DNA of 64,000 bases from Octopus vulgaris (Eukaryota). The DNA is taken from contig OX597831.1 of assembly GCA_951406725.2 (NCBI GenBank), positions 59,024,001-59,088,000 of the forward strand, given 5' to 3'. The notes below the pieces were generated by a model. It did no database searches, was not told the DNA's origin, and saw only the letters and a program-made list of their open reading frames with translations. Positions 5,197 through 10,761 of the stretch are shown here, piece by piece; position 1 is the stretch's first letter, and every line of letters begins with the position of its first letter. A program made the translations under genes and the position numbers.

Positions 5197-5197
<1 letters not shown>

Positions 5198-5707
5198 CAA
5201 TTGAGGATAAAATCTTTAAAAGAAATTATCAGTAGTCAGCGTGAAAAACCTCGTAAGAGAAAAAATCCGTAAATTCTTCCTCTTTGAAAATATTCATTTA
5301 TATTATATTGAGGGTACTACTATACGTAGATACCACACGCTAAGAGGGACCAATGCGGTCAAAACTACTAAAAATAAACAAAATTTTACCGAATGCAAAA
5401 CTTCAAAACACATCATTTTAAAAAGGAATTCAGTTACATATCACATGTGATTTCGCATTTAATGCAGAATATGCATTTCATGTTCGTCAGTGCAACAAAC
5501 TCAAGAAATATAAGAAAAAACATAACATTACAAACTCGATAGCCAACCGTAGAATTCGTCGTAGCATGTACGAATGTTTATCCTTACATATCTATGAAAA
5601 TGGCGGGCTTTTTCGGGTAAAATTTTGTTTATTTTTAGTAGGTTTGACCGCATTGGTCCCTCTTATCGTGTGATATCTACGTATAGTAGTACCCTCAATA
5701 TAATATA
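5197..5707. mobile_element. Fold-back pLTR-like module with hammerhead, arms 5300-5390 / 5616-5707
   Basis: Inverted repeat, (TA)n on both sides, homologous to 9928-10748. Confidence 0.8.
5433..5496 (-). ncRNA. Type-I hammerhead ribozyme
   Basis: Reverse complement: gttgca-CTGACGA-acatgaaatgca(tattc)tgcattaaatgc-GAAA-tcacatgtga-TA-tgtaac; palindromic stem III; A/C mismatch at base of stem II. Confidence 0.8.
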
Positions 5708-5890
5708 TATATATACATATATATATATAGGGTAAGCAACAACTTGCTTAGCCACATACCGAAACTTTAGAAATAGCAGTAAAACATCGCTTATTTCCAT
5801 TTTCTACAAATAAAACTCCACATATAATACATACAAGTAACTCACATATGTAAAAAGAAGGAAAAATATCGAAAAGTAATACTTCGGTCA

Positions 5891-5949
5891 GTTACGAACG
5901 CGTTTCTGGGCTAGAATTATAAATAACTCATTCCCGTCCTCAGAGCAAC
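5891..5949 (-). ncRNA. Type-I hammerhead ribozyme (slightly decayed)
   Basis: Reverse complement: gttgct-CTGAGGA-cggg...ccca-GAAA-cgcg-TT-cgtaac. Confidence 0.7.
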
Positions 5950-6119
5950 ATTCCATTAGATTATAGAATTGCAAATGATAATTTTTGGAGGAAAAATACG
6001 AATTCATTCGTCTATATGGATTTGGCTTGTGTTGACGATCTTTTGCTATCTCCAGTGGCGCGAGATCGGGTTGTAAGAGGTAGGTAAATAACATTTGCAA
6101 ATCTACAATCTAATGGAAT

Positions 6120-6178
6120 GTTGTGCTGATGATGGGAAGGAGTTATTTATAAATCTAACCCAGAAACGCGTCCGTAAC
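6120..6178 (+). ncRNA. Type-I hammerhead ribozyme
   Basis: gttgtg-CTGATGA-tggg...ccca-GAAA-cgcg-TC-cgtaac; canonical core, GUC site, palindromic stem III. Confidence 0.85.
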
Positions 6179-6368
6179 TGACCGTGACTTTGTTTTCGTC
6201 ATGTTCCCTCCTTTTTACATATGTGAGTTACATGTATGTTATATGTGAAGTTATATTTGTGGTAAATGGAAATCAGCGGTATTTGATAGCTATTTCTAAA
6301 TTTTCGGTATGTGGCTAAGCAACCTGTTTATTTATACATATACCTAAAGAACTTTTTGTAAAGGTTCC

Positions 6369-6410
6369 TACCGATAATGGTTTTATTTCCCTACCGAAAA
6401 CTACTCGGTA
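6369..6410 (+). ncRNA. Degenerate hammerhead remnant
   Basis: tacc-gataa-tggt...accg-aaaa-ctac-TC-ggta; stems I and II retained, core decayed. Confidence 0.4.
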
Positions 6411-6480
6411 ATAATTGTTGATTTTAAAATTAATAATCATTTACCCTTATATTTTCACACACACACACACATACGCCCCC

Positions 6481-6545
<65 letters not shown>

Positions 6546-6547
6546 CA

Positions 6548-6925
6548 TGTAGGCGTCGCTGTGTGGTAAGAAGCGTGCTTTCCAAAAACATCGTTCTTGT
6601 TTCAGTCCCAGTCCGTGACAAATGTAAGTAGTAGCTTCTAACATAGCCCCGTGCTAACCAGACTTTGAATATATCGGTGTGGGTGTATGTTTGGGTGGTG
6701 TGGGTGTTTGTGTTTGTGTGTTTGTTTCTGTGTTTCTTCCACGACAACTCCACCTCACAATTGATGTTGGTGTGTTTAATTTTTCGTAACATGGCTATGC
6801 GGCGAAGCGTAACGATAGTAGATGGCTTAAAATGTATATACTGGAGATTAATGCGTTTGACTATCATATTTAAAGGCATTGTTCTTCCATTGCTTCAGTT
6901 TAATGACTGGAGGAAAGAAAAGTTA
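6548..6925 (+). mobile_element. Old tRNA-derived SINE with internal microsatellite (family A)
   Basis: Head gctgtgtggtaagaagc...ttcagtccca, similar to 38625 and 43170 and to the reverse complement of 19990-20135. Confidence 0.65.
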
Positions 6926-6939
6926 AACACACACACACA

Positions 6940-6971
<32 letters not shown>

Positions 6972-7039
6972 TATACGTATATACAAGAAACCCTCCCGCA
7001 CGCTGATATTTATGCATGCAACCTTTTCTGCAATACGAG

Positions 7040-7350
7040 CCTAAGGACTAATACACTATCACTCCGTAGGTTTGAATGACGTGGGTTCTAATTTAACGTG
7101 CGACTGGCTGAGCAATTCACAGAGACCTGTAATCTTAATGTCGTTCTCAGTGGCATTCAGCAGATCACAGAATGTGACGAGGCTGGACCTTTTGAAATAC
7201 GGACACTACTCATTTTTGCCAGTTCAGTGGACTAGAGAGCAACGTGAAATAAAGTGTTTTTCTCAAAAACAAAATACACGAACAGGATTCGAACTCAGAA
7301 TCTTACAATCGCGAACTGTTTTCCCTAAACAGCAAGCTACACACCTTCAC
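7040..7350 (-). mobile_element. tRNA-derived SINE (family D), degenerate
   Basis: B-box-like ggattcgaactc; similar to 50990-51260. Confidence 0.6.
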
Positions 7351-7809: not shown

Positions 7810-7852
7810 AAAAATGTGTGTGTATGTGTACGCATGTGTGCGTGAATGTGTG

Positions 7853-7931
<79 letters not shown>

Positions 7932-7952
7932 TTATATATTTATATATTTGTA

Positions 7953-7992
<40 letters not shown>

Positions 7993-8155
7993 TACATATA
8001 TATTTGTATATATGTATATATATATTTACTTATACATTTATATATTTGTATATATGTATATATATATATATATATACTTATATATATATATATATATATA
8101 TATACTTATATATTTATATATTTGTATATATGTATATGTGTGCTCATATATATTA
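7810..8155. repeat. (TA)n-rich microsatellite
   Basis: Direct inspection. Confidence 0.95.
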
Positions 8156-8912
8156 TAAAGCATTCCTCTATTACATTTGACAGCAGTTGCATAACAGGAG
8201 TCAGATGAACATGAACCAGTTTAAAGTAGACGGTTTAAGATAAAATATGAACAGGGTTAAATATATTGACTTAATATTAAATACGTATGTTAATACAAAA
8301 ATGCAAATTTATATACGTAGCTATTTGTATACATTGAGAAAGATGAACATTTGCACATAAATATTCGCATTTAATCATAAAAGCATAAAAACCCGGATAG
8401 GTATGTACCAATCGATGTATTTGTATAATTGTAAAATAATATGTAAAAATGGAATATTTGTATGTATAGAACTGAAAGAGCATACAAGAATATTAAGGCG
8501 AAAATTTGGTTTATGGGCACATGTACACCCTTGAATCACTTGGTCTTTCATAAACACGCACCTACATTTTATCTCGCTTCCTATGCAATCATTTTCATGT
8601 CATATGTATGTGTATGTCTGTCTGTCTACCTACATAATGTATATGTATAATATATGTATGTACACATAACCACACATATTTTGTATACAGAGATAGACGT
8701 ACAGATTCACAGAGACACACTCGCATATATTAGGAGAGAATAAACAGACAAAAGGTGATATCACTTTAGATAAGTTAAAATAGTTTTTTACTAAGAATAT
8801 CCTTGAGTCTTCAGTAATGGAACTATTATCCACTATTTCTATGAAATGATAACTACTAATATTTTTATTTAGGAGGTTCATTCCCTGATTCATTCTCTCC
8901 AAAGACAAAATA

Positions 8913-9431
8913 TTGTGTTGTCCGGAAGGTTTGTGTTGATTTATAGTTGCTTATATTCCGACTTATTTTAGAGCACACTTTAAGCTATCTTTCCGTGGAA
9001 GAAGGTTTATGTTCCTATAACCTGTGTTAATTCTGTAACCCTTTAAAATGGAAGATACGAAAGTTTATTTTCGGCATTTGATGCTTTGGGAACCAGACAA
9101 AAATTGCTGCGGCTCGGCTGGGATGTATTACCCCACCCTCCATATTCACCGGATATTGCTCCTTCGGATTTCCACTTATATAGGTCTCTGCAGCGTAGTC
9201 TAAATGGTAAAATTTTCAATTCCTTGGATGACATAAAAAGATACCTTGAAGAATTATTTGCCATGAAACCACTTCAATTCTGGAAAGAGGGTATTTTCAA
9301 GTTAAAGGAAAAATGGAGACGCATTGTGCAACAAAATGATTCATATTCGGTTGATTGAAAATATAATGGCAAATATTTATTGACCTTTTTCTTTGCTTTA
9401 AAAATCGGCACGAACTTTCTGGACAACTCAA
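8913..9431 (+). mobile_element. Internally deleted mariner DNA transposon
   Basis: About 30-bp TIRs (ttgtgttgtccggaaggtttgtgttgattt / aaatcggcacgaactttctggacaactcaa) with TA on both sides; N-terminal MEDTKVYFRHLMLWE joined to C-terminal LGWDVLPHPPYSPDIAPSDFHLYRSLQ. Confidence 0.92.
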
Positions 9432-9772
9432 TAGTTAGCATACATGAAAATCATTAGTTAATGACATGTGTCCCACATGCTTAGCTATACAAGGGTCCCT
9501 GGGAAAGGACCCGGCAAATTATTTCAAAATACAGTGTTTATTATAAATACTCTGCAACTGTTTGTATTTTAAATTACATGCTCAAAGTCATAAGACATTT
9601 TGATTGTTTATTCCCCGTTTTTAATATATATCTACCCACTCTGTAACAAACCATTTACAGCCACATTTTATAGGCACCTACACCACCACCTATCTTCCAA
9701 CTCCAGTTCCAATCGTAGTTTTAGTGGTAAAGCAACACGAGAACTTGTACATTCCTCATACATTACATAATT

Positions 9773-9816
<44 letters not shown>

Positions 9817-9831
9817 GTATATATACATATG

Positions 9832-9929
<98 letters not shown>

Positions 9930-10162
9930 AAAATAGGATAAAATCTTCATAATAAATGATCAAGTAGTTAGCGTAAAAAAACCTCGTAAGAGAAAAAATC
10001 TGTAAATTTATTCAACTTGAAAATATTTATTTATATTATATAGAGGGCACTATTACACATAAATGCAGCACGCTAGGAGGGACTTTTAAAGTCAGAACTA
10101 CCAAAAGAAGCAAATTGTACCGAATGCAATCATCGAAGCGAGTCATTTAAAAACAGAATTTA

Positions 10163-10226
10163 GTTACATATCACCTGTGATTTCACAATCAATGCAGTAT
10201 ATGCATTTTATGTTCTTCAGTGCAAC
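10163..10226 (-). ncRNA. Type-I hammerhead ribozyme
   Basis: Reverse complement: gttgca-CTGAAGA-aca..aatgca(tatac)tgcatt..tgt-GAAA-tcacaggtga-TA-tgtaac. Confidence 0.82.
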
Positions 10227-10554
10227 GAACTCAAGATATATATGAATGAACAAGAACAACATACCAGACGAGCAACCGCAGTGTCCATCGCAGTGTCCAT
10301 CATAAGAAATTATCAAGTAGTTAGCTTCTTGATAATTTCTTATGAAGATTTTACCCTATTTTTGAATTTATATTTTTCACCGGAACAGTTCAATACTGAA
10401 TTTTTGTTCCGAGTAAGCACGTTACCGAAATGCAATTAGAAAAGCCCGCCATTTACATAGATATGTATGGATGAACAATCATATATGCTGCGATGGACAC
10501 TGCGGTTGCTCGTCTGGTATGTTGTTCTTGTTCATTCATATATATCTTGAGTTC

Positions 10555-10618
10555 GTTGCACTGAAGAACATAAAATGCATATACTGCATTGATTGCGAAA
10601 TCACAGGTGATATGTAAC
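10555..10618 (+). ncRNA. Type-I hammerhead ribozyme
   Basis: gttgca-CTGAAGA-acataaaatgcatatactgcattgattgc-GAAA-tcacaggtga-TA-tgtaac. Confidence 0.82.
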
Positions 10619-10761
10619 TAAATTCTGTTTTTAAATGACTCTCTTCGAAGATTGCATTCGGTACAATTTGTTTATTTTGATAGTTCTGACTTTAAAAGAC
10701 CCTCCTAGTGTGCGGCATTTATGTGTAATAGTGCTCTCTATATAATATATATATATATATA

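Follow-up and report, generated by a model that had tools for sequence, protein, structure and literature searches.

Penelope-like elements (PLEs), whose published members carry an open reading frame (ORF) for a reverse transcriptase (RT) of telomerase-like type and a GIY-YIG endonuclease (EN), are described as having an inverted 5′-truncated copy, a tail of 30-40 bp at one end and a bias towards (TA)n (PMC3846280; PMC8557442). Penelope is described with a 34-bp repeat and inverted flanks (PMC2377424). PLE ribozymes are described as hammerheads whose stem III is palindromic and whose stem II has an unpaired base, and pairs of the motif have been described on opposite strands, 100-700 bp apart (PMC4209133). 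In the Hydra clade, which includes an Octopus family, insertion is nearly always into (TA)n, the hammerhead has an extra unpaired base in stem II, and the RT and EN motifs include RWK and DKT and lack CCHH (PMC8557442). For the anole PLE PAc, in vitro work describes nicking and extension of both target strands, uncleaved RNA as the substrate, RT starts without target homology, and a tail that extends from one of two RT start sites to the other (PMC11167929). Here we analyze 64,000 nt of the Octopus vulgaris genome (contig OX597831.1, positions 59,024,001 to 59,088,000; hereafter the window), which contains nine two-armed, TA-associated modules, lettered A to H and J. They are likely short, non-coding, back-to-back elements set in (TA)n, either 3′ ends or retrozyme-like derivatives of PLEs. 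In eight of the nine, one arm carries the full terminus and the other stops short of it at an internal AT-rich site, and this one-sided extension is very probably a PLE-type tail.

The arrangement is clearest in modules A and B, whose features are as follows.

5197..5615, minus strand (RNA sense on the minus strand): long arm of module A with its terminus at 5197, a tail at 5197-5303 (107 nt) and a hammerhead.
5616..5702, plus strand: short inverted arm of module A, which stops at the internal AT-rich site and is followed by (TA)n at 5703; 5-nt exact microhomology.
9928..10299, minus strand: tail-bearing arm of module B, with a tail at 9928-10036 (109 nt) and a hammerhead at 10220-10169.
10300..10345, no strand: local palindrome where the two arms of module B meet, 91% over 46 nt (self-comparison).
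10322..10744, plus strand: right arm of module B, which stops at the internal site, with (TA)n from 10745 and a hammerhead at 10561-10612; 5-nt exact microhomology.
10322..10363, plus strand: second copy of the terminus within the right arm of module B, 88% over 42 nt, E 1.2e-5 (self-comparison).

By self-comparison, the two arms are 95.8% identical across 95 nt in module A (5197-5707) and 95.6% identical across 271 nt in module B (9928-10748). In A, the (TA)n of the right arm begins at 5703, for which the left-arm homologue is 5303, and 107 nt remain on the left side only; in B, the right-arm junction at 10745 corresponds to 10036 and 109 nt are unmatched on the left. An initial annotation of this DNA had proposed that one arm of each module carries the full terminus while the other stops at ATATTATAT (5300 in A, 10033 in B) and merges with (TA)n, and this description holds. 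The motif occurs 10 times across the window. Modules A and B are only ~78% identical, yet their short arms end at one homologous site. From its second terminus copy, module B also contains a 490-nt head-to-tail unit (108+382), seen in this one module. Neither the module arms nor this unit contains a long reading frame; the modules differ in this from published PLEs, as expected for truncated or non-autonomous copies.

The remaining modules, listed without strand, are the following.

43346..43584: module C, with an 87-94 nt tail (alignment-dependent) on the left arm and 0 nt of exact TA microhomology.
4756..5131: module D, with a short arm at 4756-4833, a long arm at 4895-5131, a 157-nt tail and a 4-nt junction match.
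5730..6450: module E, whose left arm begins at the internal site and whose right arm bears the tail, 106 nt long when measured on G and 128 when measured on that arm itself.
21903..22216: module F, of unrelated sequence, with a tail of 36 nt that an 11-nt direct repeat bounds, and with a single-armed relative at 51712-51859.
23184..23559: module G, a relative of E and symmetric, with a tail on both arms; its left end lacks a clean (TA)n run.
27261..27613: module H, with a hammerhead-bearing left arm that starts from the internal site and a right arm made of the tail plus ~24 nt; offset 85 nt (74 under another alignment).
15310..16190: module J, with arms 59% alike, a 168-nt offset and no intact hammerhead; an uncertain member.

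Three further offsets had been suggested before and are borne out here: about 90 nt at 43343 (87-94 nt in C, though with 0 nt of exact (TA)n match), about 150 nt at 4752 (157 nt in D), and a module at 5729 that begins where its relative at 23187 has an internal tttata (the start of E matches a site 106 nt from the terminus in G, adjoining TTTATA at 23276). Modules H, F and J, which are also asymmetric, were absent from that annotation. Eight of the nine modules are thus asymmetric and none lacks both tails (0/9), a distribution with p 0.02 if the arms chose their ends independently; without D and J, the two least certain modules, asymmetry is found in 6/7 (p 0.06). The count leaves out, as not TA-flanked outside or as other repeats, the palindromes at 7641, 19676, 40456-41218, 57746, 61606 and 63704 and the inverted pairs 37332-38603 and 38940-60621.

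Within the window, the end-points are fixed and two-valued, as had been predicted. The four relatives A, B, C and H stop within one 12-nt patch of ~250 nt, which by a rough estimate has a chance of ~1e-4. The claim that the arm stops exactly at a motif stands for the fixed homologous site and fails for the exactness, since neither outer end is a single base; each is a patch located 0-12 AT-rich nt past a conserved CC/CCC motif. All module ends run into (TA)n or (CA)n, and none has poly(A). The two single-armed insertions, at 4855 and 51712, both begin at the internal site. With n=2, this suggests that the internal site is the ordinary first start and the tail-bearing end the special one, contrary to the earlier idea that the internal site primes the second cDNA.

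Several of these modules sit together: the (TA)n at 4713 opens an insertion chain in one TA tract (4713-6450), in which the 3′ end of an autonomous-type PLE is followed by D, A and E with (TA)n between each. Within D, at the central TATA of its palindrome, 40 nt from the E family sit together with (TA)n, likely a later insertion. The right end of E enters (CA)n rather than (TA)n. In family F (21903-22216; 51712-51859), the tail is AC-rich and of canonical length.

A motif scan of the window found type I hammerheads in four modules.

5439..5496, minus strand (motif 5490-5439): module A, with stem III palindromic and one base left unpaired at stem II.
10220-10169, minus strand: left arm of module B.
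10561-10612, plus strand: right arm of module B.
6126-6172, plus strand: module E, with a partner on the left arm that has one stem I mismatch.
27454-27405, minus strand: module H.

Each of these has the near-palindromic stem III and the unpaired stem II base of PLE ribozymes. In shuffle controls there was one match in 20 shuffled windows, and the canonical core was matched 0 times in 30. The same scan found no hammerhead motif in C, D, F, G or J; the arms of C and G probably do not extend far enough to include one. The hammerheads of A, B (both arms), E and H all run from the centre outward. Outward polarity in these four modules makes it likely that both outer ends are RNA 3′ ends, i.e. cDNA starts, and that the modules are RNA-derived. 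Cleavage is predicted to fall 133-160 nt ahead of the internal site, or 241-278 nt ahead of the terminus. Because the arms of A and B extend well beyond this predicted cut, their template would have been uncleaved or circular.

The internal site also resembles the target. The matched null was built by cutting each long arm at every position, appending (TA)n and applying the same junction rule. Exact junction matches are 5 nt in A, 5 in B, 0 in C, 1 in H, 3 in E, 5 in F, 4 in D and 2 in J, which is 25 nt over eight junctions where 8.7 would be expected (p ~2e-4). If each family contributes one module, p ranges from 1.4e-4 to 0.009, and without A and B it is 0.014. The excess of TA microhomology is real, yet modest and uneven. 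It agrees with the earlier proposal that (TA)n anneals to an internal UA-rich tract insofar as such matches are enriched, and it departs from it in that a requirement for pairing is not supported (0 nt in C, 1 nt in H). Where template past the terminus is visible, it is UA-rich too, in the internal copy of B and in F, whose ends share the 11-nt direct repeat.

Tail sequences from six modules (A, B, C, E, G and H) can be aligned, and they end in a hairpin, which beats shuffled sequences in four of the six (z-scores: A -2.7, C -5.9, E -3.4, G -5.5). A profile of the tail, searched against the window, found only its seven training copies and weak matches at the centre of B (E 0.15-2.1). Past the hairpin, the right end of E (6440-6460) continues with the same UA/U-rich letters that follow the internal terminus copy of B (10363-10385).

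With the published inverted pseudo-long-terminal-repeat (pLTR) arrangement of PLEs, the modules share the inverted 5′-truncated copy, the extension at one end, junction palindromes, the (TA)n bias and a type I hammerhead near the 3′ end (PMC3846280; PMC8557442). The length of the tail differs: 30-40 bp as published, here 85-170 nt in seven modules and 36 nt in F only. With PAc of the Anolis Poseidon group, they share two fixed internal RT starts, extension of both strands, uncleaved RNA and an AT-rich target. PAc starts in an AC-rich stem-loop without target homology, whereas the module sites are AU-rich with an excess of TA microhomology; the module starts also differ in lying ~100 nt apart and outside any ORF (PMC11167929). 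The offset is not novel in itself, given the described PLE tail (PMC3846280; PMC8557442) and the two RT starts in vitro (PMC11167929). A one-sided tail and two-valued end-points are known in kind; the modules stand apart in tail length (85-170 nt in seven of them) and in TA microhomology.

The Hydra clade shares (TA)n insertion and the extra hammerhead base with the modules, although these features are not exclusive to it (PMC8557442). Among its consensus sequences, judged by eye, in three of six the ribozyme is followed by a UA tract and then an extension of 60-80 nt, and the other three end soon after the ribozyme. From ribozyme to end, 12 of 24 rows measure 87-130 and 11 of 24 measure 152-210, in bins set post hoc. 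A long UA-bounded tail may thus be latent in the published Hydra data, and passes without comment in the portions of PMC8557442 consulted. The distance from ribozyme to internal site differs (~25-35 nt in Hydra by eye, 133-160 nt in the modules) and the tail sequences look unrelated. Non-long-terminal-repeat retrozymes, for which a derivation from PLEs has been proposed, are direct tandems of at least two ribozyme-bearing units (PMC7229834; bioRxiv 10.64898/2026.07.22.740005). The modules resemble them in having a non-coding unit of a few hundred nt, one type I hammerhead and, in B, the head-to-tail repeat of 490 nt. They fall outside the definition, being inverted pairs with a partial tandem in B only; a tandem-repeat scan of the window found no tandem array of ribozyme units (longest period 500). 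A genome annotation of Octopus vulgaris lists 190 Penelope-like families, and a search of its supplement found neither tails nor hammerheads mentioned (PMC13282606). The literature covered yielded nothing on 100-nt PLE tails or TA pairing at PLE starts, a weak negative because most subscription papers, and Repbase, lay outside it.

The reading we favor, with a rough probability of 0.55, is double target-primed reverse transcription that begins at two fixed AU-rich patches and is helped by base pairing. A PLE RT-EN acting in trans would nick both strands of a (TA)n tract, and each freed 3′ end would prime cDNA on an uncleaved multimeric or circular element RNA. One cDNA would start at the terminus and the other at the internal site ~100 nt upstream. 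The start sites would be AU-rich patches just past the CC motif, likely placed by RNA structure such as the tail hairpin, and pairing of a few bases with the target may help without being required. The two cDNA ends would then likely be joined through short palindromes or microhomology. Double priming accounts for B and H, in which the arm from the internal site extends further towards the centre than the arm with the tail (423 versus 263 nt in B, 235 versus 24 nt in H), so neither arm is a simple copy of the other. A bolder version is possible, though doubtful: a TA-targeting PLE lineage with obligate asymmetric double priming, in which a dimeric ribonucleoprotein would set the nicked (TA)n strands on two AU-rich patches ~100 nt apart, held by the hairpin and aligned by telomerase-like base pairing, and so mobilize 490-nt hammerhead RNAs in trans.

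A number of observations weigh against double priming. Module G is symmetric, a counter-example to the one-sided tail, and the sample is nine modules, several of them related, from one 64-kb window. The microhomology in H, F and J alone has p 0.087; C and H, which end inside the homologous AT-rich patch, have hardly any exact match there, and the H junction can be aligned two ways. The tail hairpin is weak in B (z 0.2) and H (z -0.5), RNAalifold returned no consensus pairs for it, and its covariation was not above shuffles (seven sequences, with one pair of the structure string displaced by a column). In C, H and the internal copy of B, it is the antisense strand that folds better. Among the 150 of 214 Rfam matches listed for the window there was no hammerhead; they were microsatellite-driven microRNA matches, none at gathering score. 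By self-comparison, the modules have no similarity to the PLE within the window (209-4712), and against 44 PLE loci from public contigs they shared nothing except one microsatellite-driven match of an unrelated stretch. With no protein-coding link, the modules are not assigned to a mobilizing clade. The microhomology cannot tell RNA priming from endonuclease trimming, which itself predicts the observed TA-like internal site, the one-sidedness and the same junctions. Finally, the inner ends of the two arms nearly coincide in C, D and F (72/73, 80/80 and 128/125 nt), a pattern more in keeping with fold-back copying than with two independent cDNAs.

Endonuclease trimming would have both cDNAs begin at the terminus, after which a TA-preferring GIY-YIG nuclease would cut element DNA at the internal TA-like site and remove one tail. 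The PLE tail is held most likely to arise from EN-mediated resolution (PMC8557442), and earlier work cited in PMC11167929 has the tail needed for EN recognition and cleavage. We consider trimming unlikely, since in vitro mapping of the PAc tail gave two RT start sites (PMC11167929) and both single-armed insertions already lack the tail. Fold-back copying is rather improbable: a cDNA started at the terminus would fold back on itself, copy itself outward and, at the internal TA-like patch, switch to the second target end. This would make asymmetry obligatory, and it agrees with the inner ends of G as well as C, D and F, with the junction palindrome in B, and with the nesting of the short arm in the long arm in A, C, D and F; self-priming has been proposed for PLEs from such palindromes (PMC3846280). 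However, the internal-site arms of B and H hold sequence that is missing from the tail arm, the internal terminus copy of B and the tail of B are mismatched at 5 of 42 sites, above the 4.4% between arms (p 0.036), and G is symmetric.

Later decay, in which slippage from the internal TA-like patch to the adjoining (TA)n deletes one tail of an initially symmetric insertion, would account for the junction microhomology without special priming and for the symmetry of G. It is very improbable: every asymmetric module lacks exactly one tail and none lacks both, C has no microhomology, and A and B are among the youngest modules by arm identity (~96%) and asymmetric already. TA-targeting miniature inverted-repeat transposable elements (MITEs) or foldback DNA transposons whose inverted repeats are unequal, which the palindromic, non-coding, TA-flanked modules resemble, are highly improbable given the unequal ends in 8/9, the variable inner truncation, the consistent hammerhead polarity and the tandem unit. 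L1 twin priming has, by definition, a variable internal priming site and non-overlapping segments, along with a first cDNA primed at poly(A) and a target-site duplication, which in the modules would be hidden within (TA)n. Such twin priming, or random 5′ truncation with a chance TA match, is barely credible and largely refuted by the fixed internal site, homologous in four relatives, since the modules share with L1 the inversion, likely priming by both target ends and short microhomology (PMC9148063) but have no poly(A) end, copy the same stretch in both arms and carry hammerheads that point to PLEs; an L1-style reading of the initial annotation's twin-priming-like step is likewise not supported.

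The window also holds a PLE of its own.

209..4712, plus strand: autonomous-type PLE with a 776-aa frame (209-2539), a microsatellite-rich 3′ region and a U3-A8 hammerhead variant at 4635-4667 (Pfam RT, motif scan).

Its frame is uninterrupted and comprises an RT (Pfam), a CxxC linker (CX4CxxC) and a GIY-YIG-type region; the frame has 1759 relatives, and of 22 aligned members 16 match GIY-YIG, the window's own copy not being one of them. The linker would make this PLE Neptune/Nematis-type by published description (PMC8557442). A 1.4-kb TG/TA expansion occupies its likely 3′ untranslated region. The U3-A8 variant, a form described previously (PMC4209133), ends 45 nt short of the (TA)n at 4713, probably marking the 3′ end of the element; shuffles gave five matches in 30. 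Since this PLE shares no module sequence, it shows that PLE machinery is present in the genome, not that it moved the modules. No solved chain in the Protein Data Bank matches the 22-sequence PLE profile at E 0.01.

The 44 PLE loci (L001-L044) come from GTDB bacterial genomes or bins, ~30 of them from one Stappiaceae bin, and are likely host eukaryote contamination in bacterial bins. The tail profile found nothing below E 0.9 in them, and a ribozyme-motif scan of GTDB genome contigs gave 0 matches. Two relatives of the window PLE on public contigs have a type I hammerhead before the TA junction, at 53 nt in L001 and ~200 nt in L003, and neither matches the modules. In L025 (4361-5079), a direct repeat follows the PLE frame; a (TA)n run interrupts the hammerhead motif in its first copy, and the motif is complete in the second. 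The opposite geometry, with inverted copies that meet tail to tail at a central TA run, occurs at a PLE end in L003 (2768-2800) and, in the window, in a different repeat family (19676-19846).

Other repeats in the window are of separate kinds. A long interspersed nuclear element 3′ fragment, which we take to be RTE-like, directly follows the TA flank of B at 10810-11390, and its 126-aa frame has no Pfam match. At 24862-25234, a direct duplication of 47-55 nt flanks a TA run; its start resembles a module terminus, and it is not palindromic. Inverted arms of 170 nt (88%) surround an inner palindrome and a TA run at 40456-41218, which is not TA-flanked and possibly a MITE. A mariner-type transposase fragment lies at 30109-30501 on the minus strand (Pfam Transposase_1, E 1.4e-15).

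The origin of the inverted arms, tails and microsatellite bias of PLEs is named as an open question in PMC8557442, and PAc, the only full-length PLE studied in vitro, showed no primer-template homology (PMC11167929). If the microhomology fails in a genome-wide count, the modules would represent an ordinary PLE signature. For annotators, they are a caution that TA-flanked palindromes of PLE origin can pass for MITEs. The long tail, the AU-rich patches and the near-obligate asymmetry together provide a small, defined RNA for which pairing, trimming and fold-back predict different outcomes.

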